DNA of 64,000 nt from a virus (IMGVR_UViG_3300045988_176431:64001-128000), one strand, 5' to 3'; positions 2,376 through 55,900 are shown, numbered from the stretch's first letter. Numbers and translations are program-made. The notes: generated by a model from the letters alone, not told the origin.

Positions 2376-5300
2376 ATGGAAAAAAAGAGTAAAGAGTTTA
2401 ATATACTCATCTCAGTTCCAGAGATTACTAATAAAAAAGATATGAAGAAGTTTTTAAAACCGATTTATATCATAGAAGATTATCTGTTAGATGAATCTCG
2501 TTATGGAGATTTAGAACAGACTATCAGAAATCTTCTTCGTGGATGTTTTCATATTAAAGAATGTAGAGAATATCCAATTGAGTTTAAGTTTTATCGAAAA
2601 GATAAAGAAACACATAAGTTGCAGATTCGAAGATTTTTATATAATCTTTATATTTGGAAACCATTTTGCATGTTAAATGAATTTCATATTCTGGATGAAA
2701 ATTATATTCTTTCAGAAGAAGAAATTCCAAATGTAACAGAGTTTTTGAACGAAAAAATACTTACCACTCTTCAGGATTATAACATTGAACAGATTTTGAT
2801 TAACGAATCAATCTCTAATGTATTATATAGTCTCCGTTCAATTTCATTAGATTTTAGTGATATTATGAATCTTACTTTTAGTGATCATGATTTCATTGAG
2901 ATGTTAAATGATCCAGAATATCGAGAGATTATGGAATTAAAGATTCCTGAAGATATGCAACCAATTGAAGTAGAAAAACTACTTTCTCAGTATCAACAAA
3001 GGTTGGTGAGAAAGTTAAAACAAGATAAAAATAATCCAGTAGGAATCATGCTTAGGGCTGGAACTGGTGTAAAAGAAAAACAGTTAGCAGAGTATATGAT
3101 TGCTATGGGATTGAAGCCAACATTAACTGGTGAAGTTATGCCTATACCAATTGAAACATCATCTCTATTAGGAGGTTTAAATAGACCATCGTATCAGTAC
3201 ATTGATGCGATAGCAGCCCGTAAACCGTAAACATAATCTGCGGTTTTAAAACCTATCTAATTGCGGGGAACTGTCTATAATGATTATTTACTAACTTATG
3301 ATGGTGACATACATAAGGGCAAGGGGTAACTCCTAAGGTATAGTAAAAAGAATAATCATTGACACAATCGACGCAGCGAAGTATCTTATTTATTTCATAA
3401 TAAATCATTATAAAGGAGATGATTTAATATGAAAGAAACATGGAAAAAATTTATTTATAATGATATCGAAACAAAATATAGCGTTTCTAATTTAGGAAGA
3501 GTTAGAAATGATAATACTAATTATATATTAAAACCACATGTTCATAAAAAGACAAAATATCACATGATCCCACTTACAATAAATGGAAAAACTAAATTGT
3601 TTAGCTTATCTAGAATGGTGGCAACATTATTTATACCAAATCCAAATAATTATGAAGAAGTAGATCATGTTACTTGTGATAGATATAGAAATGAAGCTCA
3701 TAATCTTGAATGGGTTACTCATGAAGAAAACATGAGAAGAGCGTTAGTAAACGGACTCGTTTACAAAAACGATGGAAGTATGAGATATGTATTTCATAAT
3801 GAAAATGATATTAGAAAATTATGTGAATTATTATCAAATACATGTATCCCTGTTGATGAGTTGTCTAAAATAACGAACATTAGTCAAAATACTATAAATA
3901 AAATACGACTAGGTAAAAGATGGAGAAATATATCAAAGGATTATGATTTTTCTGAATATAATAAATTTATACAAAAAAATTATATTATATCTCATTCTGG
4001 AGAAAATAATTCACAATCAAAGTATCCAGATACATTGGTACATTCTATATGTCATGAACTAGAATTAAACAGAAAAACAATAAGTGAAATTGCAAAAATG
4101 TTTAATGTTCAGAAGAATTACGTATATGAATTAAGAATAGGAAAAGTTAGAACCTTGATTAGTTCTCAATATGATGTAAGCAATCATGATTTAACCGAGT
4201 TTGGATATCATCAAAAAGATTTAAACAAAATAAATGTTTTATTGAAAAAGGGCTATACTGTCCGTGAAATTATAAATAAATTAAATCTTCCAGATAACAA
4301 GAAAACTATAGCAATGATATATGGAAGAAAAAGAAATATGAAATAAATAAGATATGAGTTCAACGACTATCGAAAGTATAGTTATAAGAGAAATCTTATA
4401 ATGAATAAACGAGTAGAGTAGACCAGAATATCTGGGTGCACGAAATTGGTGCTTTGCGAAACGGTAGGTATTATAAATATGGTAATAGTATTTATAATAA
4501 AGATATAGTCTATACATTATGGTGACATAATGAATTATTAGTGATTATGAATAAGAAATCAATGGGAAATGCAGGCTACTTCGGGAAGAAAGTATCTGAA
4601 TTATGTAGGACTGTATCTCTTTCTAATAAGGTTTTAAATTGTAAAACAAAGCATTTGATTAAATATGAGATTAAAAATAAGAAATATCTTATGAAATTAA
4701 ATGGTAAGTTTTATAAGATGAATCCTGATGATGAAGATTATAAGGTACTACATTATAAAGATTACGATTTGGTTGGTAAAACTATTTATGCAAGAGGGGC
4801 ACAAACATGTGCTTGTGGACAGAATCTTATTTGTCCGACATGTCTTGGAAAAATTGCGGATTTGAACTGGGATTTGAAAGATGGTATTGGTGTATTTGAG
4901 TCTCAGGAATTATCAAAAGATATTGAACAGAAGATTCTTTCTGGTAAACATCTGTTAACAACAAAGTCAGAGAAGATTGAATTTAGCGATGAATTCTATC
5001 AGTATTTTTCAATTGCTGTTGGAGAGATTTCTCCTATCTTTGATAATATTGATAATATCAATGATTTGGCAATTTACGTTGTACCAGAAGAGATTGAGAA
5101 AGTAGAAGAATATGATGCAGATTCTACTTATAATACTTATATTTCATCTGGAAGATTCTTTGTAAGAAATCTTAAAACAAAGAAAGATATTGAAGTTAAG
5201 ATTTTGAAAAAGAAAGAATTGTATATTACAAGCAATGTCATTAAATCAATTCGTAATAATAATGGTGTAATTAAGTTTAAGGATTTGGAAGAAGATGCTC

Positions 5301-5791
5301 CAATCTTTGAAGTTATCATCTTGAATAATGAGTTAACAAAGCCACTATACGAGTTAATCTCTTTATTGGATTCTGAGAAAAAAGAAACAATTGAAGACAG
5401 TACAATTGATACGTTCTCACAAAGATTTTTGGATATTATCATTGAATCTGGAATTGGAGCGTCAATGGTTGCTGCTGAAATTGTAATGAATCGTCTAATA
5501 CGAGAAAGTGATAATGTGATGGATCGTCCAGATTTCTCACAAGAGAAAATGCCAGATTATAATATTTATACGATTCGAAAGATACTTAGAAACAATGAGA
5601 GTATTACAATTGGTTTGGGATTTGAAAACTTAAAAGCTCAGTTATTAAATCCAAATGTTTCTCAGAGAACAGCACCATCTTATATGGATGCTTATTTCAA
5701 AGAAGAACTTCCTACAGAAATTTTAAAGAAGTTTGAACAAGAGGAACCAAAGAAAAAGCAGATGGATTATTATCTAAATGCTTCACACTAG
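2376..5791 (+). CDS. multisubunit RNA polymerase beta'-like subunit, C-terminal half (exons 2376-3228 and 4542-5791)
   Basis: Exon 1 ends ...LRAGTGVKEKQLAEYMIAMGLKPTLTGEVMPIPIETSSLLGGLNRPSYQYIDAIAARKP. Exon 2 continues (L)IMNKKSMGNAGYFGKKV. The join is colinear with bacterial beta' SGARG..Q..QL.GMRGLMA.P.G.II..PI...F.EGL...EY.IS.[24 protein letters not shown]. Interrupted by intron 1. Confidence 0.8.
3229..4541 (+). mobile_element. group I intron 1 (1313 nt, carries an HNH endonuclease ORF)
   Basis: P1 is exon AAACCGT paired with IGS GCGGTTT, with a terminal U-G. Core elements AATTGCGGGG (P), CGACGCAGCG (Q), GAGTTCAACGACTATCG (R) and AAGATATAGTCTA (S) are present. The 3' splice site after G4541 is the only in-frame, stop-free solution for a phase-1 exon. 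Confidence 0.85.
3429..4346 (+). CDS. intron-encoded HNH homing endonuclease, I-HmuI-like (NUMOD4 + HNH + HTH repeats)
   Basis: YSVSNLGRVRN (NUMOD4-like), EVDHVTCDRYRNEAHNLEWVTHEENMRRA (HNH_3-like) and C-terminal repeats ..ISQNTINKIRLGKRW... AAAGGAG RBS. The ORF sits in the P6 loop of intron 1. Confidence 0.8.
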   Translation: MKETWKKFIYNDIETKYSVSNLGRVRNDNTNYILKPHVHKKTKYHMIPLTINGKTKLFSLSRMVATLFIPNPNNYEEVDHVTCDRYRNEAHNLEWVTHEENMRRALVNGLVYKNDGSMRYVFHNENDIRKLCELLSNTCIPVDELSKITNISQNTINKIRLGKRWRNISKDYDFSEYNKFIQKNYIISHSGENNSQSKYPDTLVHSICHELELNRKTISEIAKMFNVQKNYVYELRIGKVRTLISSQYDVSNHDLTEFGYHQKDLNKINVLLKKGYTVREIINKLNLPDNKKTIAMIYGRKRNMK

Positions 5792-5798
5792 AAAAGTT

Positions 5799-5838
5799 AA
5801 GATGAGATTATCATAATCGATAATCTCATCTTATTTTT
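5799..5838 (+). terminator. rho-independent terminator
   Basis: AAGATGAGATTATC / GATAATCTCATCTT stem followed by ATTTTT. Confidence 0.65.
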
Positions 5839-5875
5839 AATATTTTAAAAAAACAAAGAAAGGTAGGTAATAATT

Positions 5876-6424
5876 ATGATGAAAATGAATGAATTACCAC
5901 AAAATGTAACAAAAGAAACAAAGATTAAGCTAGTAACAAATCCAGAGAAAATTAATTCTGGTGATCCTGAAGAATTAGAAACTTTGGATGTTAAAGTACA
6001 TTATTCTGATTTAAATGATACTCTTTATATTATACCAGATAAAACAGAAAGTACAACATATGACAGTTTAGTAGCAGCGATGTACATGATCTGTTCTATG
6101 GTAGAAGACGAGTATCAAACATTAACAGAAACTGATAAAGAAGAAATACGTGAAGAGGAAGAGAAACATCAAAAAGAACAGGAGGAAAAACGACAAAAAG
6201 AGTTAAATGAAACTATTGAGAAATATTGTGAGGAAAGTCAAATTGAAATGATTGAAAAGATTCGATTCGTTAAAGTAAAAGATGGTGTGAATATAAAATT
6301 GAATCTTCTGAATATTATTACTGAAATCTCTGAATTGGAGAAAGATGATGATGGAAAATACATCGTTCCTGATAACTGTATTTATATTGAGCAGAGGGGA
6401 ACCAGAAACAGCTGGTACTTATAA
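5876..6424 (+). CDS. hypothetical acidic protein (182 aa)
   Basis: AAGAAAGGTAGGT RBS block, and a glutamate-rich central region. Confidence 0.55.
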   Translation: MMKMNELPQNVTKETKIKLVTNPEKINSGDPEELETLDVKVHYSDLNDTLYIIPDKTESTTYDSLVAAMYMICSMVEDEYQTLTETDKEEIREEEEKHQKEQEEKRQKELNETIEKYCEESQIEMIEKIRFVKVKDGVNIKLNLLNIITEISELEKDDDGKYIVPDNCIYIEQRGTRNSWYL

Positions 6425-6905
6425 TTATATCGTAGTCGATTCAGAACAGGTTCTTTGTAATAGTGAATATGATCTTGAATCTGCTAAAAGAATGGCTGAT
6501 AAGATTGGTGGTGCTGTTGTTCATACTGGAAAATATGCATACAATTCAGAAGATAATAATGTGACAACAGCTGAAAAAAAAACGACTTTCATTATGGATA
6601 AATTTGAAGATTATTTGGAATCAGAGGATATTACAATTCCTTGTAATTTTAAAGATGAAGAGGAAGAAAGAAGTAATTATGCAAATTCAGCTAGACTTTT
6701 TGGTACTTGCTATCTCCATCTAGAGGATAGAGTCAAAATTGTTGTTATGACAACGGGCAGAGATAATTTTGGATCTCGTGAGATTGCTGCAGATCGAATT
6801 GTTAAAGTATTTGCACATTTCATGGATGAAAAAAATATTATAATTCCAGATGAAGATATGTTTAAACGGTTAAAAAATGAAATTAGAGATGTATTCATTA
6901 AATAA
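6345..6905 (+). CDS. hypothetical protein (start uncertain; overlaps the previous CDS by 80 nt)
   Basis: Triple ATG at 6345-6353 preceded by TGGAGAAAG. The next in-frame ATG (6492) has no RBS. Confidence 0.45.
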   Translation: MMMENTSFLITVFILSRGEPETAGTYNYIVVDSEQVLCNSEYDLESAKRMADKIGGAVVHTGKYAYNSEDNNVTTAEKKTTFIMDKFEDYLESEDITIPCNFKDEEEERSNYANSARLFGTCYLHLEDRVKIVVMTTGRDNFGSREIAADRIVKVFAHFMDEKNIIIPDEDMFKRLKNEIRDVFIK

Positions 6906-6921
6906 AAGAAAGGATGATAAC

Positions 6922-7626
6922 ATGAAATATTTTATTGGCTTATTATCAACAAAAAATAGTAAGAAACGCATGGAAAGTAAATCAGAGTTTTTAGCACTCT
7001 TTAAATTGGATTATGAGGATGAAGGAAGAATTGCTTTAGAACATGTAAGAAAGAAACTTCCTGTAATTTCTCCAGAAAATTACAGTATTGAGAAAATGTT
7101 TGATTTATCAGATTCAGAAGATTTCCTGAACTGTATTAATCAATACATCAATCATACAATCAATGTAAAAATCAAGAAAACAAAATTAAATACTTATTAC
7201 ATTGATACTTCGGTCAAGATTAATGTGTTTGATTTACGTTTTCATGATTTACCAGTTTCATTTGTTCATGTCATTTCTAGACCAAAAATTATTGGAGATC
7301 CGGATATAAAGAAATGGCTTTCAGATGTAAATGAAGAAATCGATGACATCGTCTGTATTAATGAAAGTAATTATGCTACTCTTGAGACAAGTATGATTCA
7401 ACGTTCTGGTGAGATTCATGAGCAGTATTGGAGATGCTTGTTGATGAAAACAGATGTAGGTGTCATCTTCCATGATGTGCATTTAAATATGATTATGGAA
7501 ATTGCATCTGATTTGTATCAGTTAGCAGAACAGTATCAGAGATGGTTATACTTCTTCTTTGTTGATAATAACCATCAACTGTATAAAGTTACCGTTGATG
7601 ATAAGTTAACAGTAGAACGTTGCTAA
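6922..7626 (+). CDS. hypothetical protein (234 aa)
   Basis: ATG 6922 follows AAAGAAAGGATG. The track start 6877 overlaps the previous gene and has no RBS. Confidence 0.55.
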   Translation: MKYFIGLLSTKNSKKRMESKSEFLALFKLDYEDEGRIALEHVRKKLPVISPENYSIEKMFDLSDSEDFLNCINQYINHTINVKIKKTKLNTYYIDTSVKINVFDLRFHDLPVSFVHVISRPKIIGDPDIKKWLSDVNEEIDDIVCINESNYATLETSMIQRSGEIHEQYWRCLLMKTDVGVIFHDVHLNMIMEIASDLYQLAEQYQRWLYFFFVDNNHQLYKVTVDDKLTVERC

Positions 7627-7650
7627 AGTTTTATAATGTATATAAATAAT

Positions 7651-7660
7651 TATATATTAT
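7651..7660 (+). promoter_or_regulatory. TATATATTAT motif (candidate phage promoter), copy a
   Basis: Exact 10-mer, intergenic, followed by a T run. One of nine exact copies. Confidence 0.35.
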
Positions 7661-7939
7661 TTTCATGTAAATACTAATTAGTGTTACAGAAACCCAAAGA
7701 GATTGATACCTGTCTGTCGGGATAGATCATCAGGAAGTTTAAATACACCGAGTGTCAAAAGGGGTTTCCATTTATATCTTATTCGGCATTTCCGGTAAGA
7801 TGTTAAATGTTATTGATGGCAGAGGAGGGTAATATATGGCAGAACTTAAAGATCAATAAATATCTTTAAGGATTAGGTACCCTTCTCAATATAAGCAAAA
7901 AGAAGTCTGATAAATAAAATTATCAGACTTCTTTTTTTA
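7661..7939 (+). ncRNA. candidate structured leader or small RNA between a promoter motif and a terminator
   Basis: A 380-nt gap with no long ORF and locally higher GC. Helices: GAAACCC/GGGTTTC, ATCTTAT/GTAAGAT, GAGGGTA/TACCCTT and CTTAAAGAT/ATCTTTAAG. Contains a 7-codon mini-ORF (ATG 7836, MAELKDQ) behind GGAGG. Ends in a strong terminator. Confidence 0.3.
7897..7939 (+). terminator. rho-independent terminator
   Basis: AAAAAGAAGTCTGATA / TATCAGACTTCTTTTT stem followed by a T7 tract. Confidence 0.7.
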
Positions 7940-8022
7940 TTGATTATAGATAAAATCAATATCTTATATTCTATTTTTTTTATTACTTTTTTTTAATATT
8001 TTAAGAAATGAGGTATTTTTAT

Positions 8023-9261
8023 ATGTCATACAAAAACTTATTAATTGAAGAATTAAGAAATGACGAAGACAAAAAAGAAGATTTATTTAGTATCAATGCA
8101 GAGACAGATACTTATAAAACTGGTATTGCACCACTTGATTATGCTCTTGGTTATGTGGTACGTGTATATAATGATGATAATACCGTTAATGAAGAATATA
8201 AAGCACTCGGTATTAGTGGTGGTTGTAATGTAATGACGATTGGAAAATCATCAACAGCAAAGACATCCACTATGCTTTATATTGCCGCTAATATTGTAAG
8301 AAAATATGAAAGCGGATCAGTAATTCATTTTGACCTTGAACAGGCTATGAACTTATCAAGAGCAAGAACTATGACGAAATTTTCAATTGATGAAATTAAA
8401 GGTGGTAAATATATTTTAAGACAGTCTGATACATCCGTTGAAAAGATTAAACGTAGTATTATTAAATTATACAAAAAGAAAAAAGATAATCCAGAAACGT
8501 TTAAATATAACGCTGGAAAGAAAAATGAATTAGGGGAAGATATTGTTGTATATGAACCAACAGTAGTTCTTATTGATTCAATCCCTTCTATGACAGTAGA
8601 GATGAATGAAAATGATAAAAAAGATTTGAAGAAAATTGAAGAGATCTCATCTCAGACAGATCGAATGAGATTAACTGGTGAGATTGGAAGATTTTATACA
8701 GATCTTTTGCAATATATTAAATCAGTAAATATCATGACTATGTCAATCAACCATATTAAAGTGAATCCAAATATGGGAATTGTTAAGAGCCCTGCTGAAT
8801 TGTTATACTTGAAGCAAGATGAGGCACTTCCAGGCGGTAAAGCTCCAGTATATTTAGCACATATTCTTTTAAAATCCGTTGCGATTGGTAGTGCTAAATT
8901 TAATTTGGAAGATGATGGATTTGATGGTTTCGGCATTGCCTTACAGATTATTAAATCCAGATCAAATCAAGCAGGTCAAACAGTAAATCTTATTTATGAT
9001 AAGGTACGTGGTATTGATCCACTTAGAACATGTCTTTTGTATGCAAAAGAACAGGGATTATTAAGTGGTAATAAGAATGCTACATATTTTACAGATGATA
9101 AAGAGCATAAATTCCCTATGAGAACCGTAAATGAATATTTTAGGGAACACAGAGAAATGTACAAGATTATGTATGACCACATTATTCCGTTACTTGATAA
9201 AAGACTTTCTTCTGTAGCAGAAGAGGAATTAGAAGTTGTTGATGAGTTAATGGATTACTAA
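8023..9261 (+). CDS. RecA/UvsX-like recombinase
   Basis: Walker A-like TIGKSSTAKTST and Walker B-like TVVLIDSIPSM. The size and layout are RecA-like. ATG 8023 lies 8 nt after GAGGT; track start 8008 overlaps the RBS. Confidence 0.65.
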   Translation: MSYKNLLIEELRNDEDKKEDLFSINAETDTYKTGIAPLDYALGYVVRVYNDDNTVNEEYKALGISGGCNVMTIGKSSTAKTSTMLYIAANIVRKYESGSVIHFDLEQAMNLSRARTMTKFSIDEIKGGKYILRQSDTSVEKIKRSIIKLYKKKKDNPETFKYNAGKKNELGEDIVVYEPTVVLIDSIPSMTVEMNENDKKDLKKIEEISSQTDRMRLTGEIGRFYTDLLQYIKSVNIMTMSINHIKVNPNMGIVKSPAELLYLKQDEALPGGKAPVYLAHILLKSVAIGSAKFNLEDDGFDGFGIALQIIKSRSNQAGQTVNLIYDKVRGIDPLRTCLLYAKEQGLLSGNKNATYFTDDKEHKFPMRTVNEYFREHREMYKIMYDHIIPLLDKRLSSVAEEELEVVDELMDY

Positions 9262-9264
9262 ATT

Positions 9265-9274
9265 TATATATTAT
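9265..9274 (+). promoter_or_regulatory. TATATATTAT motif, copy b
   Basis: Exact 10-mer 4 nt after the stop at 9261, followed by a T run and the hairpin 9287-9325. Confidence 0.3.
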
Positions 9275-9353
9275 TTTTTTGGTAAAGAAGATGAGTAAAG
9301 TTTAAATAAAAACTTTACTCATCTTTAAAAAATATAAGGAAAGGTAGGTGATA

Positions 9354-10103
9354 ATGAATATGAGTGTTTCTTATGTTAATATGATTCTGCAAGGAGGGAT
9401 TTATTACTTTGAATTAAATGAAGAAACAAAAAACAGACCGTTTTTGGTAATTTCAAAAGACAATGGATATGGAAAAGATGTTTTAGCATTTGTGATTACG
9501 GAACGATTTACTAGTACAGATGTATCACTTCCGATTGTACTAAATAATTATGTTTCTTTTATTCGTGTATCAGGCTCAAAAGAAGTTCCAAAATCAAAAA
9601 TTATAAATTCATCGTTTAATGGTGTTTTAATTCCAGATGTGTTTAATATAGCAATCCGAATGTATATGAGACGATTTGCTATCGTTAATGAAAAAGAATT
9701 GGAAAAAGATTTGAATGATTATTTGGATAAAATTGAGAAAGAGGGTCATTATTATTATCTAGACCGAAAGAAACGGTTTAGAAAAAAAGAATACCTGAGA
9801 AATCAATTATTTTTGGAAGATAGTAAGGCAAAAATTGTATTTCCTGAAAAAGAAGAGAACAATGTGAATATTTCAAAATCAAACACAATTAATGGACCTT
9901 TAGATGATGAGGTTATGAAAGATTTTACTTTAAAGCAATTATTTACAATAAAGAGAATGATACATGAGCAATCAAAGAAAGACATTCAAAAAAAGTATCT
10001 ATTGGATAATTGGAAGTGTGATTATATTTGTACCAATATCGAACGATTAATCACAAGGAAAAAACGTGGGGAAAATATGTATAAAAAGAAAAGAAAAAAA
10101 TGA
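9354..10103 (+). CDS. protein with an N-terminal PemK/MazF-like domain and a basic C-terminal extension
   Basis: GGIYYFELNEETKNRPFLVISKDNGYGKDVLAFVITERF resembles the PemK/MazF pattern GdIy.vdl......RP.lViS......v.v.piT. ATG 9354 follows AAGGAAAGGTAGG. Confidence 0.4.
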   Translation: MNMSVSYVNMILQGGIYYFELNEETKNRPFLVISKDNGYGKDVLAFVITERFTSTDVSLPIVLNNYVSFIRVSGSKEVPKSKIINSSFNGVLIPDVFNIAIRMYMRRFAIVNEKELEKDLNDYLDKIEKEGHYYYLDRKKRFRKKEYLRNQLFLEDSKAKIVFPEKEENNVNISKSNTINGPLDDEVMKDFTLKQLFTIKRMIHEQSKKDIQKKYLLDNWKCDYICTNIERLITRKKRGENMYKKKRKK

Positions 10104-10118
10104 TTGGAGGATATAGTT

Positions 10119-12771
10119 TTGCCAGAAATACAAAAATATAACTTAAAAGATGAGTTAAAGGCTGCTGATGAGGAATATAAAAATTCAACAGCCCTTGTTG
10201 GTATGTCGGCATTAACTGAACCAAGATATACAAACTCAACAAGAACTCAAATGTTTACAAGTCATTTGAAACAGTTTTTGAATCTCATTCAACCGGAATT
10301 TCCAAGGGTGTTTACAAATGCAGAAAACGTAGTAGGAAAACATTCTTCTGCATATTACAAAACTAAAAATGACTTAGAAATTATTGAAAAGATTGAAAAG
10401 TATGGAGACATCTTAGAAGTGCCTTACATATATCATTTATTTGTATTTGACAAAAAGAAAAAACGTTATCGTGTTATTACACGAAAAGAAGTAGAAGAAA
10501 ATCTGACAGAGGATTTTGGTTATCATATGAATAATGAAGAGATTGACAGTTTTAAAGAAGGAGATATCATCCCAAAAGGAGATATTCTTTATAAGTCGAA
10601 TTCATATGATGAATCTATGAATTATCGTTATGGAGTAAATGCAACAGTACAGTATGTATTAAATCCATATACATCAGAAGATGCTGCTGATGTATCAGAA
10701 TCTTTTGCAAAGAAAATGACAACTTTGAAAGTGAAGAAAATTCCTTGGGGATTAAATAACAATGATATTCCTCTTAATTTATTTGGAGATGATGATGAAT
10801 ATAAGCCATATCCAGATATTGGAGAACCAGCATGTGGAATCTTTGGATGTTCAAGACCTCAATATAATGATCAGTTGTTGTTTGATTTTAAAGATTCAAA
10901 TTTAAGAACGATTAAAGATTCAGACCGTCCAGTATCATATCCAGGAAAAGGATTTATTGTCGATTATGAGATTTATTGTAATAATCCAGACATTGAAGAG
11001 AATTCTTTTAATAGTCAGATTATGACGTATTTAAAATCTCAGACAAAATACTGGAAAAAGATTTATAAAACAACAAAGAAGATTATTAATTCTGGTTATG
11101 ATTATGACAGAGAAATTGATTATCTTTATAAACGTGCAGATGAGTTTTTAGATGAAGATAAAAAATGGAAAGACGATTCTGTATTTGGTAACTTAAAAAT
11201 TGTAGCAACGATTGCAGAATATATTCCATTAAGGAAGGGGCATAAATTTACTGGTTAACATAACAGCCAGTCATATTAGGCGACTAATATGTTACAAACT
11301 CCATGAATTGCGGGGAACTCTCGTTAGGTTCTAGTTACTAAACTAAGATAGTGATATACTTAGTGGCAAAGGGTAACTCCTAAGGTATAGTAAAAAGACT
11401 AGAAATAGAGACAATCGACGCAGGGAAGTATCTTAATAATATAAGATATGACTTCAACGACTATCGAAAGTATAGGTTAAGAGAAATACTTAACTGAATA
11501 AACGAGTAGAGTAGACCAGAAGTCTGGGTGCACGAAATTGGTGCTTTACGAAGTGTGGAGCTCTTTATATTTGGTGACAGAATATAAAGATGAAGATATA
11601 GTCTAATCTATACTGAGAAGTATAGCTGTATAAAAACAGATATAAGTGTAACGAACTTATATGAATAATCATGCGTTATGGAAACAAATCTGTTGTTTCA
11701 CGAGTATTACCCGATAAAGATATGCCTCATACAAAAGATGGAAAAACTGTTGACGTTCGATTAAACTTATTAGCCATTATCAACCGTACAACAGGGTTTG
11801 TTCCTCATGAGTTATTTATTAACTTCATTTGTGATAGAGCAAGGGAGCAAATGAAAAAAGCAACTACGTTGAAAGAAAAAGAAAATATACTCTTTTCAAT
11901 CATTAAAGATTTGAATGAAAAACAGTATAAAAGTATGTATGCTTATTATAAAGATTTGAAAGATACAAAATTGAAAAAAGAATACATTGATGATTGTATT
12001 TATGAAGGTATCTTTATTCATCAGAATCCTGTTTCTGAAGATGAACCAATTCTTTATAAATTACAAAAGATGACAAAGAAATATAATTGGTTGGAACCTT
12101 ATCAGTTATATGTAACAATCGATGGTCACGAGATTCCTCAGATGATAAAAACTTACATGGGTGAGATGTACATGATTCGATTGAAACAAACTGACCAAAA
12201 GAATTTCTCGGTACGAAATACAGGAGCAATTAATACAAAAGAATTACCAGAACGAAGCTATAAGAATCGAAATCATCAGGATTTATATTCAGATAAAGCA
12301 ATTCGTTTTGGTGAGTATGAAACTCTTGCTATTATGACAGGTCTTTCAGAAGAAGAACTTGCTCTTTTCCATGCCTATTATCGTACTTCTATTAAAGGTA
12401 GAAAAGATGTGATTTCTCATATCTTTGAACCAGAAAAGAAATTAAGTGAAATTGATTCTTCACTTACAAATCGAACAGCAGAACTTTTTAATGTTATCTT
12501 TAAAGCATTATCAAATGAAATTGAATTTATTGATAGTGATAATATCGTAAAATCAATGGATAATATTCATGTTCAAGAATACACATATCATGGACAAACA
12601 TATTTCATGACAGAATATGAATTTTATCTATTTAAATTAGAAGATGAATTAAAAGAGAAGATTCTGTTAGAAACTCCTGGTTTAACAGATGAAGAATTAG
12701 ATGAGAGATTACATGAAGAATTAAAAGCATCTAAGAGAATTATGGGTGAACCTGTAAAAGATATGAAATAA
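10119..12771 (+). CDS. multisubunit RNA polymerase beta-like subunit, C-terminal half (exons 10119-11255 and 11674-12771)
   Basis: The splice joins ...RKGHKFTG|RYGNKSVVSRVLPDKDMPHTKDGKTVDVRLNLLAIINR. This equals bacterial beta K.aGRHGNKGVvS...MP...dG...D..LNPLGVPSRMN. TTG 10119 lies 8 nt after GGAGG. Confidence 0.85.
11256..11673 (+). mobile_element. group I intron 2 (418 nt, ORF-less, extended P1-P2 variant)
   Basis: P1 is exon ACTGGT paired with IGS GCCAGT, with a terminal U-G. The same P/Q/R/S core is present. The 3' splice site after G11673 gives an exact G|RYGNK junction. Confidence 0.85.
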
Positions 12772-33668: not shown

Positions 33669-33803
33669 GTAAGTTTACTTTACTTACTTAACACAAATAT
33701 ATTATATAAATATGATATTTAATTATACACATAGTTTTCTCTTATCTATCTTTTTATGTTAGATTTGACAAGTTTTTAAGTAAATTTGAAAGGGGAATTG
33801 ATA

Positions 33804-36800: not shown

Positions 36801-37231
36801 GTGTTCGTGGTGTATTAACATGGAATATGTGTGAGCCGGATAAAATGATTGAATTTCCTGCTAAAGTAAGTTTATTAAAAATGAACTTAGAAAATGAGGA
36901 ATCAATAGAAGATATGAAAGATAAATTCCCAAATCAATACAATGCAATTAAAGAGGGAATTTTTAATGATAAAACAGGTATTTTTATTAAAGAAAAGAAA
37001 GATAAAAAAACAGGTAAAAAAGAATTAAAGAAAACTGGTATGAAAGTGTTAGCAATCCCATCAAGTGAAACAATACCTGATTGGGCATTACCATATATCG
37101 ATTATAATACTATGGTAAATAATATATTAGCACCGTTTAAATCTGTTTTGGAAATCTTTAATCTTCCAGGAGTAGAAGAAGGAAAGACTGGAAGAAAATC
37201 AACAGGACTAAGTAATATTATAAAATTATAA
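33804..37231 (+). CDS. family B DNA polymerase, polymerase-domain part (exons 33804-35268 and 36573-37231)
   Basis: KKRLANSYYGGSG (motif B, Kx3NSxYG), VTVIDTDSN (motif C, DTDS) and KTKKRYLS (KKRY). The junction is ..KPKTDVKG-F-DFKKSVTSE. ATG 33804 lies 8 nt after GAAAGGGG. No exonuclease motifs or motif A lie upstream. Confidence 0.8.
35480..35489 (+). promoter_or_regulatory. TATATATTAT motif, copy e (inside intron 6, upstream of its endonuclease ORF)
   Basis: Exact 10-mer 24 nt upstream of ATG 35513. Confidence 0.3.
35513..36346 (+). CDS. intron-encoded HNH homing endonuclease, I-HmuI-like
   Basis: YIISSTGRIFS (NUMOD4-like), HRLVALTFIPIP...QVNHKDGNKSINCDWNLEWLTCKENIHHA, and two HTH repeats (ISKKINVPYYIISLVLNKKNW and ISKICNVKTSFVSDISSGKTF). 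AAAGGAAGGTG RBS. Confidence 0.8.
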   Translation: MNNNEKINQKDMKEIIKKINSSICFIDEKFKQLYIDEEYIPYIISSTGRIFSINYMHQKGNVHELKSRTDKDGYKLILIHYNHKNYGYHIHRLVALTFIPIPIKYRKQGYSSNDLQVNHKDGNKSINCDWNLEWLTCKENIHHAWKNNLAHSIGIYNGNSVYSNEDIETVCKLLESDYSIKQISKKINVPYYIISLVLNKKNWLHISNNYDFSNYSYGKKKRKDVINVCKLLEKGEYSIKEISKICNVKTSFVSDISSGKTFKSISKDFNINISCNK

Positions 37232-46700: not shown

Positions 46701-46941
46701 TCGAAACAACAAGTTTATTTCAAAGATTGAAACGAATTATATGTATCAACAGTTAGTAGAAAAGAAGTATAAGCATCTGCAAGAATTAAAGAAAGACTAC
46801 ATATTACAAGTATTATCTTCGATTATCAATACGAATTTTACTTATGTAGTTTATGAGGAACCTGAAATGTTAGGAAAACCAATTGTTTATAATGAAGATA
46901 AAATCTCGGATGAACTCTTGTTTTTCTTAAAATGTATTTAA
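43783..46941 (+). CDS. hypothetical protein interrupted by four tandem group I introns (exons 43783-44610, 44956-44982, about 45325-45361, about 45738-45752, and about 46224/46237-46941)
   Basis: The ORF 43783-44640 runs into the intron P element, and the ORF ending at 46941 resumes after intron 10. The first three 5' splice sites are well supported. The last two micro-exon boundaries and their reading phase could not be resolved by hand. The start may be TTG 43792. Confidence 0.5.
44611..44955 (+). mobile_element. group I intron 7 (345 nt, ORF-less, type-B 3' half)
   Basis: P1 is CATGGTT paired with GATCATG. The 3' splice site after ..AACATG gives the in-frame 27-nt exon KYLFNEHWD. Confidence 0.75.
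44983..45324 (+). mobile_element. group I intron 8 (about 342 nt, ORF-less, type-A 3' half)
   Basis: P1 is CTGGGAT paired with GTTCCAG (7 bp, terminal U-G). The 3' end is provisional. Confidence 0.7.
45362..45737 (+). mobile_element. group I intron 9 (about 376 nt, ORF-less, type-B 3' half with an extra insertion)
   Basis: P1 is GTTGGAT paired with GTTCAAC (7 bp, terminal U-G). The 3' end is provisional. Confidence 0.7.
45753..46236 (+). mobile_element. group I intron 10 (about 484 nt, extended P1-P2 variant, degenerate ORF remnant in P6)
   Basis: The core P/Q/R/S elements are intact. P1 is only CGAT paired with GTCG, placed by analogy with introns 2 and 6. Both ends are provisional. A mini-ORF lies at 45979-46023. 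Confidence 0.6.
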
Positions 46942-47742: not shown

Positions 47743-47743
47743 T

Positions 47744-48157: not shown

Positions 48158-48180
48158 TCAAATTTAGGAGGTATAATAAA

Positions 48181-49377
48181 ATGGATGTAAAAAATTTTGA
48201 AAGACTCCGATATACAAATAATTTTTATAAGAGAATCATTGATCAGATGAGTGTTCAAATTATTGGTGCTGAAGAAACAGATAAAGAATTGATGGATTAC
48301 TTGTGTGAATCCATCAATAAGTTTGGATTCAAAACACTTATAGGAAATCTTGACCCGGATATAAAAAATACATATAGGGAGTCAAGTATTATAGGTTACA
48401 GCTTTTCTCAATTGTATAATGAAAGTTCTCTCACAGGTAATATCACAATGAATCTACTTACTATATTCATTTTAAATGATAAGACTCGTTGTGTGTATGA
48501 TAAAACAAAAAAAGCGGATGAACTTATTGTGCTTAATTCAAAAGACTATGAGAATGGTTTCCCTTCAAGTGAAGATATATATAATATTTTGAATAATGAA
48601 ATATTTTCTAAAGTAAATATTATTATACCTTGGAGTGGTGGCTGGGATTCTACTCTAGTATACTTAAAAGTATTAGGTACTAAATTATTTAAAAGAATTT
48701 CAGTACCGTTTTGTAGTTCAGAAAACTTACAAACACAAAAACAAAGAGAAGCACGTGATATGATATCAGAAGAATTAAAGAAGCTTATTGATTCTTTATA
48801 TAGTGAAGAACTTGAAAAAATCGATGATGTAGGTGATTGTGATATATGTGAAATTTTAGATAATGAAATAAATATCAATATTCCAGATGCAAGTCATATG
48901 CCTTCCATGCCTACAAGAAATCAACTACCAATGATATTTACTACTATGATGTATTCTTGTTCTTGTAGTAAAAATATAGTATTATACCCGATTATAAAAC
49001 AAGACAATTGGAGTAAAGATGATATTACTTCTTTTAAAGAGGGTTTCATTAATTTTTGTTCAGCGTATTCAGGAAATAATATTGCTGCTATAGTTGATTT
49101 TCCTCTTATTGAGTATGATAAAGTTGATGTTATTGAAGAAATATTTAAATTCGAAAAAGATTATGACATTTCTATTCATGACAAGATTTATACTTGTGAA
49201 TGTGGATATAATATTTGTAGTTATGATCCGTGTAAATCATGTAAAGTTGAACGTGAAGCTTTAGAATCTAGTAAAAATCCTGATGTTCATGAATATTTTC
49301 TTGAGAAGTATGAAAAAGAAGGACTTACGAAAAAAGAAGAATATTTTGAAAAATTACAAGAAGGGTTAAAAAAGTGA
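48181..49377 (+). CDS. PP-loop ATP pyrophosphatase family protein, QueC-like C-terminal Cys cluster
   Basis: IIIPWSGGWDSTLVYL is the SGGxDS PP-loop. The C-terminal TCECGYNICSYDPCKSCKVEREAL resembles the Zn-binding C..C..C..C tail of QueC. About 140 aa of unknown N-terminal extension. Confidence 0.5.
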   Translation: MDVKNFERLRYTNNFYKRIIDQMSVQIIGAEETDKELMDYLCESINKFGFKTLIGNLDPDIKNTYRESSIIGYSFSQLYNESSLTGNITMNLLTIFILNDKTRCVYDKTKKADELIVLNSKDYENGFPSSEDIYNILNNEIFSKVNIIIPWSGGWDSTLVYLKVLGTKLFKRISVPFCSSENLQTQKQREARDMISEELKKLIDSLYSEELEKIDDVGDCDICEILDNEININIPDASHMPSMPTRNQLPMIFTTMMYSCSCSKNIVLYPIIKQDNWSKDDITSFKEGFINFCSAYSGNNIAAIVDFPLIEYDKVDVIEEIFKFEKDYDISIHDKIYTCECGYNICSYDPCKSCKVEREALESSKNPDVHEYFLEKYEKEGLTKKEEYFEKLQEGLKK

Positions 49378-49409
49378 ATGAAATATTGATTCATATTGAT
49401 TCATAAAGT

Positions 49410-49419
49410 TATATATTAT
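49410..49419 (+). promoter_or_regulatory. TATATATTAT motif, copy g
   Basis: Exact 10-mer followed by the hairpin 49433-49467 (AAAATGAGTAGAAAT/ATTTCTACTCATTTT), then the RBS of 49501. Confidence 0.35.
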
Positions 49420-49500
49420 TTATATGAGTGATAAAATGAGTAGAAATTTAATATTTCTACTCATTTTCATATGAATAAAGAAAGGATGATGTAAAAATTT

Positions 49501-50208
49501 ATGAAAAAGACTTTAGTAAAAGTAACTGATTATCTCAATCATTTAAAGAAAGGAGAAATACTAGATAGTGTTCCGAAAATGATTTATGGTCAATTTAAAG
49601 ACTATGACCATGATGCAGATATAGCATTAATAAATGCAAGAGAGTATTACATACATCACTATGGTTTTTCTTTAATCACTAATTCATGGATAGAGCCATT
49701 GGCAAAATTTATTGGTGATGCTAGATGTCTTGAAATTATGGGAGGAACCGGATTTCTTAGTTATGTATTGAGTAAGAAAGGAGTAAATGTTATATGTACT
49801 GATGATTATTCATGGGAAGAATTACCAGATTCAAACGTTGATGGTTGGGTAGGTAATCATTTTTGTGATATAGAAAGGTTAGACGCAGTAAAAGCTGTAG
49901 AAAAATATGGAAAGGAAATTAAGTACTTAATTGTATCATGGGCATATATGGATGATACATTAGTTAGAGTATATAGAAAACTAAAGGAAATAAATCCAGA
50001 ATGCTTAATCATTTACATTGGAGAAAGACAAGGGGGTTGCTGCTCTTGTGATGAATTCTTTGATATTTCTAAGAATTCAATGGATGATATGTATAATTAT
50101 TATGATGATAAAGTATTCAGTAATGAAATTATTGAAATGACAAAAAAGTTAAATGATGGATTTACATCATGGATGTTAGTTGAAGATGTGATATTTTTTG
50201 TAAAGTAA
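49501..50208 (+). CDS. class I SAM-dependent methyltransferase-like protein
   Basis: CLEIMGGTGFLSYVL (motif I, E/DxGxGxG), then VNVICTDD with an acidic end of beta-2. Confidence 0.5.
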   Translation: MKKTLVKVTDYLNHLKKGEILDSVPKMIYGQFKDYDHDADIALINAREYYIHHYGFSLITNSWIEPLAKFIGDARCLEIMGGTGFLSYVLSKKGVNVICTDDYSWEELPDSNVDGWVGNHFCDIERLDAVKAVEKYGKEIKYLIVSWAYMDDTLVRVYRKLKEINPECLIIYIGERQGGCCSCDEFFDISKNSMDDMYNYYDDKVFSNEIIEMTKKLNDGFTSWMLVEDVIFFVK

Positions 50209-50225
50209 AGAAAGGAGATTATATT

Positions 50226-51335
50226 ATGAATCTTAACACAAATCCTGAAAATGCTACTTCTAGTATTAGTGACAATAAACTTCTTAAAGAGCATATTGAT
50301 TCTTTAAAGAAAACTATTGATGATTTGAATTTAAAAATAACATATCCTTTTGAATTCCAAGAATCAATTCGAAAATTCAATGCTGGTGAATCCCGTAAAA
50401 TATTTTCAAAGAATAATTCATCGATGCTGATTGAATCAAATAATTGTCGTGTTGTTTTTCATCTCTATGATGAGAATGTTGGAGTTATTTTGAGATCTGA
50501 TTTATGCTTATACATAAGGATCAATAATGACGATAGTAATGCTAGTGCTTATGAAAAATATATAACAGAAGCTTTTTATGTTTTTAAATCAAGTACGTTG
50601 TGTAATGCAGAATCATTTGTAATGAAAGTAGATAATACTCCATATGAGGAGTATAAAATTATTGGATTTTCATTTTGTGAAAATATATATTATTTAGATA
50701 AAAAACTTTTTTATGAGTTTTTAACATTTGAAAAATCATTATTTGATTTTCCTTATGTATTAAGTGATATTATCGAGCAGGTAGATATATTCGAAAGATT
50801 TGTCAGATCTATTTCTTATGAAAAAAGTCCTGACTATTTACAAAAGATAGGAAAAATACTAAATGTACCATGTGTTAAGTTTGTGAATGATCTTAGAACT
50901 ACTGAAACTATTAAAAAATTACACAAACGTTTTGGATGTATGGTTGATGAATATCTTCCACATTTCAACTCAGAAATTATTAAGAAACCATCAATTATTA
51001 CTGATTCTTCGAATGTAAAAAAATATATTGATGATGTATATTCTGTGATTCATTCAATAGGATATACTGCTGTTGAACTTAAAATTCCGTGTTTAATTTT
51101 TAAACATATTACCAAAGAAATGATTGATCAAATTTACCAGTGTGTTGACGAAGATGCTTCATTAACATATCATACTACTACTCATAAAGGCGAGTTATTT
51201 ATTACTTATGAAAGAATATATCATTCTAAATCTTTAGATAAAGTATGTGCTAGCATTGAAACTGACTTTATAAGAACTGTGAGAGTTTTTCTTGAAAGCC
51301 TGTTATGCACTTTAATAAATAAGGAGGAAGAGTAA
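50226..51335 (+). CDS. hypothetical protein (369 aa)
   Basis: AAAGGAG RBS. Confidence 0.55.
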   Translation: MNLNTNPENATSSISDNKLLKEHIDSLKKTIDDLNLKITYPFEFQESIRKFNAGESRKIFSKNNSSMLIESNNCRVVFHLYDENVGVILRSDLCLYIRINNDDSNASAYEKYITEAFYVFKSSTLCNAESFVMKVDNTPYEEYKIIGFSFCENIYYLDKKLFYEFLTFEKSLFDFPYVLSDIIEQVDIFERFVRSISYEKSPDYLQKIGKILNVPCVKFVNDLRTTETIKKLHKRFGCMVDEYLPHFNSEIIKKPSIITDSSNVKKYIDDVYSVIHSIGYTAVELKIPCLIFKHITKEMIDQIYQCVDEDASLTYHTTTHKGELFITYERIYHSKSLDKVCASIETDFIRTVRVFLESLLCTLINKEEE

Positions 51336-52853: not shown

Positions 52854-52902
52854 ATGTGAAGTCAAATATCTATAATTGGATATTTGACTTCACATTATTT
52901 TA
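52854..52902 (+). terminator. hairpin or terminator upstream of the beta'-N gene
   Basis: 17-bp stem ATGTGAAGTCAAATATC / GATATTTGACTTCACAT followed by TATTTT. Confidence 0.55.
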
Positions 52903-52925
52903 AAATTTTATTTAATAAAAGGAGT

Positions 52926-55900
52926 GTGATTTTTGTTTTGGGTAAACAAATTGTAAGAATCAATCGACTCAGTTGGGATATTTTATTTTATGATGATATG
53001 ATAAATGGTGATGGTTTTATCATATCAGAACCTGCTGAAGTAAAAATCGATCGAGAAAGAAAAAAGTCTCTTTATGGTCCACAATCTCCACTCTATGGTA
53101 CAACGTATTCAGATGAGCAGGCATTTATTGAACGTTATCGTTGTGAGTGTGGAAATTTTAAAGGAAGACAATTTGCAGGGGAAGTATGCCCCATTTGTAA
53201 AACAAAAATTGAAAGTAAAGGAAGTAATGTAAAAACAACAGGATGGATTTGTACCGGAAATGCAAGATTTATTAATCCATTCTTTTATCAGCTTCTTGTA
53301 AAAGCGATTGGAAAGAAAATCTTTCCAGATATTATTGATTGTAAACAACGTGTCGATACAGATGGACACCGAAGTCAATATGTACCAGAAGATACAGAAC
53401 CACTTTCTCCTTATTCTGGATTTGGTATTGAAGAATTCATGAACCAATATGAAAATATTCTTACTTATTTTCAGACAGTAAGAAAACAAAAATACGATGA
53501 TCTTCAATATCTAAAAGAGAACAAATCTAAAGTATTTGCTTCTCATATTCCGATTTATACGACAATGTTACGTCCGCAAAGTGTCACAAGTGATACTTTT
53601 TATTTTAATGGTATTGATCGAGAAATCAATCCTCTCTTTAATCTTTCAGAAAGTATTAAAGATTGTAATCCAATTGAGCGTCCATTTATCTTACAAAGAA
53701 TACAAGAGCGTGTAAACAACATCTTTGAATTTAACTTTGATATGATTAATGGTAAAGAAGGATGGATTCGAGGAAAACTATTAGGTGGCTCGTTAGTGCG
53801 TTATAATTTGACGAGCTTTATAAACTCATCTAATTGCGGGGAACTCTCGTTAAGTCTTAACTACTAAACTAAGATGGTAACATACTTAGTGGCAAGGGGT
53901 AACTCCTAAGGTATAGTAAAAAGGTTAAGAATAGAGACAATCGACGCATCGAAGTATCTTAATATTATTATATATTTATAAGAAAGGTGGTGAGATAATG
54001 ACGTCACATATTATAAAATTTAACAACATGGACAGTGATTATGTCATTTATGAAGATTGCACAATTATTAATATAAAAACTAATCATATTATGAAACATC
54101 GAATAAGTAAAAGTACAGGACGAGTGTATGTTCGTTTAACTAATAATAAAAAAAGAAAAGAATATAGATTATCAAGATTAATGGCTACATATTTTGTAGA
54201 AAATCCTGATCCAAAAAATAAAGTTGATGTTCATCATAAAGATAAAAATGTATTAAATAATGTACCAAGTAATTTGCAATGGGTTACAAAAGAAGAACAT
54301 TATTTGATACATAAAGGTGATAAAAATCATCCATTTTCTAGTGGTGAAAATCATAGTGGTGCTATATTAACTAATGATCAAGTACATGAAATATGTAAAT
54401 TGATTCAAGATAACATTATGTCTCAAAATGATATTGCGAGAAAATATAAAGTAATGCCACATGTTATTCATGAGATTCGTTTAAAACATAATTGGAATGA
54501 AATAACAAAATATTACGATTTTTCAAAATATTCGTATGGGAATAATTTTCTAAAAGATGATAAAGTAAAAGAAATTTGTTATCTGATTGAATCAAATAAG
54601 TATACATTGATGGAAATATCAAAAAAATCAAAAGTTACTTATTCTACAATTCTTGATATTTATCATAAAAAACGATATAAAAGACTAAGTGATAATTATG
54701 ATTTTGATAGATTCAATAAGTTAACAAGATATAGCAAAGGACTTAAGAAAAAAATAAATTTTTTAATTAATGAAGGAAAATCAAATAATGAAATTAAAAA
54801 TATATTAAAATTAGATAATTGTGCAAAAACGAATACTCTATTGTGTAGAGAAAGAAAGAAATCAAATCAATAAAAAAATAATATTAAGATATGAGTTCAA
54901 CGACTATCGAAAGTATAGCATAAGAGAAATACTTATGTGAATAAACGAGTAGAGTAGACTAGTATATATTATACTAGGTGCATGAAAATTGATGCTTTAC
55001 GAAACGGTGAGTGTATTATATTTGGTAACAGAATATAATATAATGATATAGTCTAAACTTCTATGGATAACATAGAGAATATTTGAAATTATACGGCTCG
55101 TAACGTAATTATTCCAGATCCATCTTTACATGATGGGGAAATTGATGTATCTTATCATACATTTAGAATCTTATTTAAATATAAGATTATTTATTATATG
55201 ATGAAGATTAACGACATACAGTTATCAAAAGCATATCATAAATGGAAGAATAGTTATAAGTTTAATCAACACATTTATGAAATTATGTTGTACATCTTAA
55301 AGAAAGAAAAACCAAGAATATTAATCAATCGAAATCCGACACTAATAGAAGTTTGGTGTCATTAAACTCTTCTAATTGCGGGGAACTCTCGTTAAGTCTT
55401 AACTACTAAACTAAGATGGTAACATACTTAGTGGCAAAGGGTAACTCCTAAGGTATAGTAAAAATGTTAAGAATAGAGACAATCGACGCAGCGAAGTATC
55501 TTCAATATATAAAAATACTATAGTAATTGAGAGGTGATAAATATTGCCAAAGAAAAGAAAGAAATTAAGTGAATTTCTTTTATCATATTATAAATTAATA
55601 GAAGAAAGTGATGAAAAAGAATTATGGAAAGATATTAATTTAGGAGACTTCCCAATATACCAAATAAGTAATCATGGTAGAGTTCGAAGGAAAGATAGTA
55701 AATTCATAATTAATCCTTTTCATTCTTATCGAAAAGATAATAATGGTAACTTTAGATATGATAGACCAACTTATCTCAGAGTTCAATTATATTATTACAC
55801 TAATGGGGTAAGAATGAAAAAACATATGGAAATAAGTAGGCTTGTTGCAATAAATTTTATACCTATACCAAAAATATATACTGATAAGGGATTAGATGAG

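Follow-up and report, generated by a model that had tools for sequence, protein, structure and literature searches.

What element recurs twelve times along one strand of a viral genome, and why do the two arms of its hairpins change together from copy to copy? This question is raised by the 64,000-nt stretch IMGVR_UViG_3300045988_176431:64001-128000 (the window; all positions are counted from its first letter). A repeat search of the window found a single family of exactly 12 direct copies, all on the + strand, starting at 3259, 11306, 19274, 20410, 20925, 35337, 44639, 45016, 45390, 45806, 53832 and 55374. Every copy carries a group I core in the canonical order P (AATTGCGGG), Q (ACAATCGACGCA), R (GTTCAACGACTA) and S (AAGATATAGTC), the Q element of intron 6 being a variant with a 2-nt deletion. 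None of these four elements was found on the − strand of the window. It is thus very probable, judging from these motifs, that the repeats are twelve members of one family of group I introns with predicted self-splicing activity. We propose, with a probability of roughly 0.8, that this is one ribozyme family with a covarying P5abc-like domain, whose helix alleles are exchanged between copies under selection for splicing.

The family is poorly captured by the general Rfam model. Only intron 3 (59.9 bits) and intron 4 (57.1 bits) passed the RF00028 gathering score of 50 bits. Introns 8, 9 and 10 scored 34-44 bits, which is below the threshold, and five of the 12 introns were matched at E ≤ 1. 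The introns unmatched by Rfam were located through the repeats and the core motifs. A custom P4-P6 model, built from the same copies, scored all 12 at 135-150 bits. Sub-threshold Rfam matches to miRNA, Plastid-psbM and DapZ models were rejected, as they lie far under the thresholds of those models.

The sequence-only reading had proposed compensatory changes in a long hairpin between P and Q and in a smaller hairpin inside it. A motif search found the arm pairs in exactly the introns named, at homologous positions and at a constant offset from P: TCTTAAC/GTTAAGA in introns 3, 5, 7, 10, 11 and 12, TTCTAGT/ACTAGAA in introns 2 and 4, TTCTAAC/GTTAGAA in intron 6, AATGATTATT/AATAATCATT in introns 1 and 8, and AATTAATAAC/GTTATTAATT in intron 9. 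The inner hairpin likewise reads CTTATG/CATAAG in introns 1 and 5 and CTAAG/CTTAG in the other ten. The long hairpin corresponds to P5a and the inner hairpin to P5b, both of which belong to a P5abc-like extension between P and Q. The 12 P-to-Q segments could be aligned with a single gap, the 2-nt deletion in intron 6. Their RNAalifold consensus contains 37 pairs (P4, P5 and P5a-c), of which 10 are changed on both sides. In this consensus P5a has 8 pairs and then 4 more past a five-A bulge, P5b is capped by GUGA or GUAA, and P5c is short. The consensus and the single folds give the same domain layout: P5, a long P5a with an A-rich bulge, a three-way junction, P5b with a GNRA loop and a short P5c. 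L5b is a GNRA tetraloop in all 12 copies. Further variation had gone unmentioned in the earlier reading: P5 covaries as well (TCTC/GAGA, TGTC/GACA and TATC/GATA), so does the tip of P5b (ATG/CAT versus ATA/TAT), and P5a is extended by 3 bp in introns 1, 8 and 9.

Among the 12 copies, 99.1% of the cells at paired positions were paired, compared with 90.9 ± 0.8 after shuffling, and none of 500 shuffles reached this value. Cells changed on both sides numbered 34, compared with 8.2 ± 2.5 after shuffling, again with no shuffle out of 500 as high. When the 3′ partner was moved by 1-3 columns as a register-shift control, pairing fell to 34-41% and only 0-3 double-changed cells were left. The lone non-pair in P5a is the closing U-U of intron 12. 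In this structure-aware alignment the paired substitutions are therefore positionally complementary. Could such paired differences be a by-product of copying, marking sub-lineages among recent duplicates or decaying relics? Distinct alleles are few, copies that share an allele may also share ancestry, relatedness is not preserved in the shuffle control, and one intron contains a decayed endonuclease remnant, all of which would fit. We nevertheless consider this explanation highly improbable. Both sides are changed at about ten pair positions of P5a and at further positions of P5, P5b, P3, P6 and P8, with almost no half-changed states among the 12 copies, and the collapse to 0-3 cells in the register-shift controls is hard to reconcile with it.

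The folds also indicate on which nucleic acid the constraint acts. Single alleles folded on the + strand all gave the same architecture. Their energies range from −24 to −30 kcal/mol (z-scores −1.8 to −4.0), and the − strand folds less well by 6-9 kcal/mol. In addition, the helices contain conserved G-U pairs, for example columns 31 with 92 and 66 with 76 in alignment A3. Since a conserved G-U pair would be an A-C mismatch on the opposite strand, the constraint acts on the + strand RNA. At the DNA level the arms form perfect inverted repeats, and the cores appear to recombine frequently, so one might suppose that they serve in DNA, as endonuclease sites, recombination hotspots or cruciforms, instead of as RNA helices. 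Both the G-U pairs and the strand difference in folding argue against such a role. Moreover, the helices are found at the canonical place of P5 in a group I core, between P4 and P4′, with GNRA loops at their ends, and homing sites normally lie in exons and not in the intron core. A function at the DNA level is thus very improbable.

Covariation is not special to the P5 region. In a core alignment of nine copies with trimmed P6 loops, 90 pairs were predicted and 36 of them were changed on both sides. Beyond P5, covarying pairs were found in P3 (four such pairs), P6, the hairpins between P7 and P3′, and P8. P3 has six variants among the nine aligned copies, and in the other three it was read by eye. 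P7 was also read by eye, because it forms a pseudoknot and is absent from a nested fold. Between P7 and P3′ the introns contain an insertion of 100-140 nt with two or three covarying hairpins, provisionally named P7.1/P7.2; intron 7 carries an alternative module at this place. Most phage introns belong to subgroup IA, of which a P7.1/P7.2 insertion between P7 and P3′ is the mark. Phage subgroup IA2 is itself heterogeneous (Nucleic Acids Research survey of 2025, PMC11878797).

We then looked at other viral sequences with the pattern TGCGGGRA ... GGTATAGTAAAAA ... AATC, which spans the domain. It matched more than 119 stretches in IMG/VR, compared with 11 contigs among 185,579 bacterial species genomes (bacterial or metagenome-assembled genome contigs). 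An exact 26-mer of the intron matched one 1.4-kb metagenome contig and had no match in bacterial genomes. The distribution of these matches suggests that the intron class is mainly viral. A covariance model of the domain gave 131 matches in 100 of the IMG/VR loci, corresponding to 114 distinct outside sequences. In these, 34 of the 37 pairs are changed on both sides with 93% of the cells paired; P5a covaries at all 8 pairs (95.6% paired) and P5b at all 9. The GNRA tetraloop of L5b is present in 99 of the 114. For P5a we also performed an alignment-free test, in which the 7 nt before the TACTA anchor were compared to the 7 nt after GGTATAGTAAAAAN, with arms re-paired between sequences as a control. 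Among 103 outside sequences with 75 distinct arms, 86 were complementary at 7 of 7 positions. The mean complementarity was 6.48 of 7, compared with 3.52 ± 0.11 for the re-paired arms. The maintenance of the helix across 75 distinct P5a arms of other phages again disagrees with a mere by-product of copying.

The P5-region helices are real, and group I introns of this large and mainly viral class have them as a standard feature. The proposed selection on RNA structure is borne out by the complementary changes, by the + strand bias of the G-U pairs and by the covariation across the 114 distinct outside sequences. In the same way, the suggestion that the copies are functional ribozymes and not decaying repeats agrees with the presence of the core in all 12 copies, with the covariation in P3, P6 and P8 and with the open reading frames (ORFs) restored in six genes; their splicing is a prediction from these features.

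To what extent this variation arose within one genome can be judged from a related contig. An exact 26-mer of the domain matches only one IMG/VR contig, IMGVR_UViG_3300045988_176405 (249 kb), which it hits 16 times. Where this sister contig and the window share sequence, for the most part in exons, they are 93-99% identical. At least 23 introns of the family are present in its fetched loci, one of them with an endonuclease-sized insert. The sister contig lacks the endonuclease genes of the window, yet it has extra introns at four or more sites: at window 8828/8830, at 20831/20832, two near 22023-22038 with a 10-nt exon between them, and two in the gene that holds four introns in the window (43783-46941), the sister counterpart of which has six. 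Three of the extra introns are inserted precisely after an exon U and end in G when compared to the intron-less window alleles, which confirms the U| and G| junction rule. At window 20829-20831 and 22021-22023 (compared with sister locus L003), the splice-site U of ACT and GAT is replaced in the intron-less allele by a synonymous G (ACG) and C (GAC), respectively. For the extra endonuclease-bearing intron at window 8828/8830 (L005:3549-4755) the 3′ junction is ambiguous: the protein-conserving option follows an A, and the CAG| option adds one Tyr codon. Both intron-encoded endonuclease ORFs and presence/absence polymorphism at precise sites, the marks of mobile introns, are thus present. The sister counterpart of intron 2 (L005:7232-7316) has lost P5b and P5c, with TATTAAAAAT instead, and carries the TCTTAAC allele where the window has TTCTAGT. 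By its sequence, this intron of an essential gene has apparently lost most of the P5 extension through a natural deletion.

Each helix occurs as a small number of discrete alleles (five for P5a, three for P5, two for the P5b stem and two for the P5b tip), all of which are common to the window and the sister contig. Within the window alone, the four gametes are complete for P5a with P5b and for P5b with its tip. The ends of orthologous introns (P1/P2 with exon, and P9 with exon) are 93-100% identical between the strains, with lower downstream flanks for intron 10 (78%) and intron 12 (88%). Orthologous P..Q segments are only 90-93% identical in six of the 12 pairs. One orthologous pair has a different module between P7 and P3′ and 60% identity across R..S. 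Intron 4 carries TTCTAGT in the window and TCTTAAC in the sister contig, and for intron 10 it is the reverse. Arms of differing alleles were never combined in one copy (0 of 35 copies in window and sister contig), and the covariation holds across 30 distinct copies of the two. One-sided changes in the sister contig are few and all are G-U intermediates, as would not be expected if the paired differences only marked sub-lineages.

Some of these alleles also occur in other phages. TCTTAAC/GTTAAGA was found in three outside sequences, including the polA intron of Staphylococcus phages, and the P5b stem AACTAAG/CTTAGTG in four, which are unrelated phage contigs. The other P5b stem, ACTTATG/CATAAGG, was not found in the outside sequences, five of which have a stem that differs by one base pair. 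The outside sequences contained none of the remaining four P5a alleles, which were thus seen in this lineage alone. The claim that the ribozymes are diversifying inside one genome is only partly supported, as there are few discrete helix alleles, which are shared with the sister contig, reassorted and partly present in other phages. The pattern of alleles fits an exchange of whole helices between copies under selection for splicing, and stepwise diversification in one genome does not follow from it. Because the alleles are few, shared, reassorted and in part found elsewhere, much of the signal would represent a few old compensatory events that were spread by recombination or by independent acquisition. 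Since four P5a alleles are lineage-specific, some diversification may also have taken place within the lineage. Some of the variation is thus older than the genome, some possibly originated in the lineage, and the larger share of what can be seen is reassortment.

A different origin of the same alleles has to be weighed here, namely that already diverged introns of the same class independently invaded from other phages and that their covariation was inherited from the donors. The P5a allele that is identical in the Staphylococcus phage DNA polymerase intron points in this direction, as do the AACTAAG/CTTAGTG stem and the one-pair variant of the other P5b stem in unrelated IMG/VR contigs. The class is also widespread (more than 119 IMG/VR stretches and 203 phage records), five introns carry homing endonucleases, and the intron content differs between two near-identical strains. 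However, clustered same-class introns of other contigs resemble each other far less than the 12 cores do (85-97% in P..Q). For example, L067 (IMGVR_UViG_3300045971_000676) has seven such introns in 6.5 kb (4086-10616), which are far more divergent from each other; L100, L018, L085, L090, L037 and L038 hold 3-4 each. Furthermore, four of the five P5a alleles were seen only in this lineage, and reassortment in all combinations among copies and orthologous sites would not be produced by invasion alone. We therefore regard independent invasion as unlikely, although it deserves consideration.

Under the preferred explanation, exchange of helix alleles within one ribozyme family, the P5abc-like domain would, as in other group I introns, buttress P4-P6, one half of the ribozyme. 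As every intron interrupts an essential gene, a copy that fails to fold or splice would be lethal to the phage, so that only variants with both matching helix arms would survive. Recombination (gene conversion) within the highly similar cores could then carry whole helix alleles from copy to copy, while P1/P2, which are bound to pair with the local exon, and the P9 tail would stay in place as site-specific ends. Breaks and donor copies probably come from the homing endonucleases of five introns and from co-infecting related phages. The route may be gene conversion in near-identical cores or core replacement during co-infection; we infer recombination from the mosaicism of the copies.

Several points weigh against this explanation. 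The shuffle control ignores relatedness among the copies, and independent compensatory events in the lineage are few (about ten pair changes in P5a). Independent acquisition of introns that were already different gives a similar picture to recombination. The window and the sister contig were both assembled from metagenomes, and their DNA is rich in repeats. A covariance model was used to fit the outside alignment to the structure, and the search pattern fixes GGTATAGTAAAAA and parts of P and Q, so that conservation there is partly by construction. RF00028 reports nothing for seven of the 12 introns, five of which have an ORF inserted in the P6 loop. Lastly, splicing of the 12 introns is a prediction, strongly implied by their sequences. 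Mis-assembly was considered as a source of the mosaics and is unlikely: the variable sites of P5a and P5b are about 7 identical bases apart, in a unit of about 80 nt, a length that short reads should be able to span.

Going one step further, we tentatively suggest that a single intron lineage may have grown to at least 12 sites here and at least 23 in the sister contig, nearly all of them in RNA polymerase genes, with concerted exchange of helices by gene conversion and fixed exon-pairing ends, although we hold this less firmly than not. Selection on splicing would then let through only helices with matching arms. If true, the density of introns at this phage locus would be unusual (four to six in a single gene, along with a 7-nt microexon), and the locus would provide a natural experiment on how ribozymes evolve by modules, with a bearing on the path from intron mobility to split RNA polymerase genes in giant phages.

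The splice sites of the introns were placed by P1 pairing (exon U opposite the guide G), P10 and the reading frame. At all 12 introns, T is the last base of the predicted 5′ exon and G the last base of the intron, and P1 pairing with a terminal U-G was read from the sequence at each splice site. After in-silico removal of the introns, one continuous ORF of 483-749 aa was obtained in each of six genes. Frames in essential genes that are restored only by precise removal also speak against decaying relics. Five RNA polymerase genes hold 11 introns and a DNA polymerase gene holds one. Four spliced proteins match RNA polymerase PHROG profiles over almost their whole length, and exon ORFs of two further genes match Rpb2 domain 6 (Rpb2_6) and divDNApol (divergent B-family DNA polymerase). 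Introns 2, 11 and 12 are located inside what we take, from a comparison with E. coli, to be highly conserved polymerase motifs (GRHGNKG-like, LLGKRVDYSGR-like and, just upstream of NADFDGD, NRAPTLHR-like, respectively). Gene callers will split such polymerase genes into fragments, and the Rfam gathering threshold catches just two of the 12 introns.

All introns and their ORFs are on the + strand. The gene at 2376-5791 encodes an RNA polymerase subunit (phrog_3015, profile positions 27-650 of 653) and contains intron 1 (3229-4541, 1313 nt), of which the P1 U-G pair and P10 could be read from the sequence. The motif search placed its P5a arms at 3279-3288 (AATGATTATT) and 3351-3360 (AATAATCATT) and its P5b arms at 3295 (CTTATG) and 3312 (CATAAG). 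The P6 loop of this intron carries a putative HNH homing endonuclease ORF (3429-4346, 305 aa) with NUMOD4, HNH_3 and HTH domains. Intron 2 (11256-11673, 418 nt, no ORF) splits KFTG|RYGNK in the RNA polymerase beta gene (10104-12771, Rpb2 domain 6) and has P5a arms TTCTAGT at 11329-11335 and ACTAGAA at 11398-11404.

Introns 3, 4 and 5 share one gene with exons at about 18.8-22.5 kb (approximate limits), which matches phrog_2943, annotated as a polymerase. Intron 3 (19245-19617, 373 nt) and intron 4 (20380-20742, 363 nt) have no ORF; their P5a arms are TCTTAAC 19297-19303 with GTTAAGA 19366-19372 and TTCTAGT 20433-20439 with ACTAGAA 20502-20508, respectively. Intron 5 (20896-21973, 1078 nt) has P5a arms TCTTAAC 20948-20954 and GTTAAGA 21017-21023, P5b arms CTTATG at 20961 and CATAAG at 20978, and a putative homing endonuclease ORF (21065-21823, 252 aa; HNH_3, E = 7.5e-11). 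The divergent B-family DNA polymerase gene (33786-37231) is interrupted by intron 6 (35269-36572, 1304 nt; P5a TTCTAAC 35360-35366 and GTTAGAA 35429-35435), the ORF of which (35504-36346, 280 aa) has HTH domains and a weak HNH_3 match.

The RNA polymerase gene at 43783-46941 (phrog_25005, positions 16-463 of 464) contains four introns separated by exons of 27, 37 and 7 nt. Intron 7 (44611-44955, 345 nt), the first of the four, has P5a arms TCTTAAC 44662-44668 and GTTAAGA 44731-44737. It is followed, after the 27-nt exon, by intron 8 (44983-45324, 342 nt; AATGATTATT 45036-45045 and AATAATCATT 45108-45117) and, after the 37-nt exon, by intron 9 (45362-45737, 376 nt; AATTAATAAC 45410-45419 and GTTATTAATT 45482-45491). 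Intron 10 (45745-46223, 479 nt; P5a TCTTAAC 45829-45835 and GTTAAGA 45898-45904) comes after the 7-nt microexon TGTTAAT (45738-45744), which keeps the reading frame at the intron 9/10 boundary. A 12-nt exon at this boundary (TCGCAATGATAT, with P1 = GATAT/ATATC) was rejected as it breaks the frame, and GATATAAAGAAATTTATATC reads better as P2. In the sister contig the exon begins at the same place and another intron follows downstream, which confirms the 3′ splice site of intron 10. Its proposed P10 sits on the unusual side of the guide sequence and was not relied on. About 100 nt of its P6 loop (45930-46040) still read as the C-terminal end of a homing endonuclease (..RLGMTRNAVWNIKQKIN*), which looks like a decayed endonuclease gene inside an otherwise intact intron.

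The RNA polymerase beta′ gene (phrog_2987, positions 47-467 of 478) starts at 52884 and extends past intron 12. The 5′ splice site of intron 11 (53795-55085, 1291 nt; P5a TCTTAAC 53855-53861 and GTTAAGA 53924-53930) was set by the frame and by the beta′ motif, which is split as LLGGSL|NYTARN. This intron has a putative homing endonuclease ORF with HNH_3 (53998-54873, 291 aa). Intron 12 (55344-56479, 1136 nt; P5a TCTTAAC 55397-55403 and GTTAAGA 55466-55472) splits NRNPTL|NFYS upstream of NADFDGD and carries an ORF with NUMOD4 (55544-56239, 231 aa). In total, five of the 12 introns have ORFs that match HNH_3 or NUMOD4, some with HTH, and seven lack an intact ORF. Such domain matches are typical of homing endonucleases.

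The window is AT-rich (~28% G+C) and nearly all of its long ORFs are on the + strand. The sole minus-strand ORF of at least 150 aa (33014-33616) lies just upstream of the DNA polymerase gene. That gene encodes a divergent B-family enzyme ~30% identical to the polymerases of Bacillus phage AR9, PBS1 and Staphylococcus giant phages. A megablast of the intron-bearing regions found no sequenced phage that is close at the DNA level, returning 125-nt Staphylococcus phage intron matches or nothing. Together, these results suggest that the window comes from an uncultured giant phage, a distant relative of AR9. No tRNAs were found in the window. An AT-rich motif, TTTATATATTATTT, recurs upstream of genes at 9256, 17915, 43732, 49401 and 59982 and resembles TATATTAT, which has been reported as the consensus of early promoters in AR9 and MarsHill. 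Near-identical starts (MSKKYELTDET..) are shared by three paralogous ORFs in tandem (56900-57637, 58012-58689 and 59226-59864, within 56870-59864). About 3.1 kb (48170-51313) are missing from the otherwise collinear sister contig, in which locus L002 joins 48170 to 51313.

The nearest characterised relative of the introns is that in the polA gene of Staphylococcus phage K and related Twortvirinae, also found in Golestan101, which encodes the HNH endonuclease I-KsaIII. It is 73% identical to intron 3 over ~177 nt (P3 to P6) and 82% identical to intron 5 over P..Q, and it shares the P5abc-like layout, the identical TCTTAAC/GTTAAGA P5a and an HNH gene downstream of P..Q, while its P5, P5b and P5c sequences differ. 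This type occurs in essentially one copy per genome in 203 matching phage records, compared with 12 copies in the 64-kb window. Its host gene is a family A polymerase in a ~140-kb Herelleviridae phage, whereas here the hosts are RNA polymerase genes of a giant phage. Landthaler and Shub are said to have described, in 1999, a single gene of Staphylococcus phage Twort, orf142, with three self-splicing group I introns. The likeness lies in several group I introns within one phage gene and short exons between them; the window gene has four introns (six in the sister contig) and exons down to 7 nt. To our knowledge, the Twort introns are without this P5abc-like extension. In its predicted secondary structure the extension resembles the P5abc of the Tetrahymena IC1 intron, with an A-rich bulge in P5a, a three-way junction and a GNRA tetraloop on P5b. 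The sequences are unrelated, and the window cores have the large P7-P3′ hairpin insertion, provisionally P7.1/P7.2 as in IA.

The covariation itself is sound but ordinary, as P5-region covariation is a classical route to group I structures. More notable is the setting, a dozen near-identical ribozymes in the transcription and replication genes of what appears to be an uncultured AR9-like giant phage. The most interesting aspect, as we infer it, is the modular, concerted evolution of many copies in polymerase genes. The natural panel of helix variants, together with one natural P5b/P5c deletion, could be used to test the role of the P5 extension in folding, and the locus is a tractable case to measure gene conversion between intron copies.

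Related giant phages provide the closest setting. AR9, MarsHill, Madawaska and Machias form a related group with introns in RNA polymerase, DNA polymerase and other genes; none of their introns was among the best blastn matches to the window introns. Introns have been reported to disrupt the RNA and DNA polymerase genes of AR9-like giant phages, and their boundaries differ from one close relative to the next (bioRxiv 10.1101/2020.12.14.422802). Phage PhiPA3 has a group I intron with an HNH endonuclease at a conserved site in an RNA polymerase gene (Birkholz et al. 2024, PMC11620839), and this endonuclease contributes to the competition between co-infecting phages (PMC11620839). It differs from the window in belonging to another phage lineage and in having a single intron. 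A 2025 survey counted just over 100 known phage introns, and 45 across Bastillevirinae (37 species) (PMC11878797); by this measure twelve introns in 64 kb are dense. The split RNA polymerase genes of AR9-like phages have been proposed to originate from intron mobility (PMC7598289), and the intron-rich polymerase genes described here give context to the idea that such mobility shaped these split genes in giant phages.

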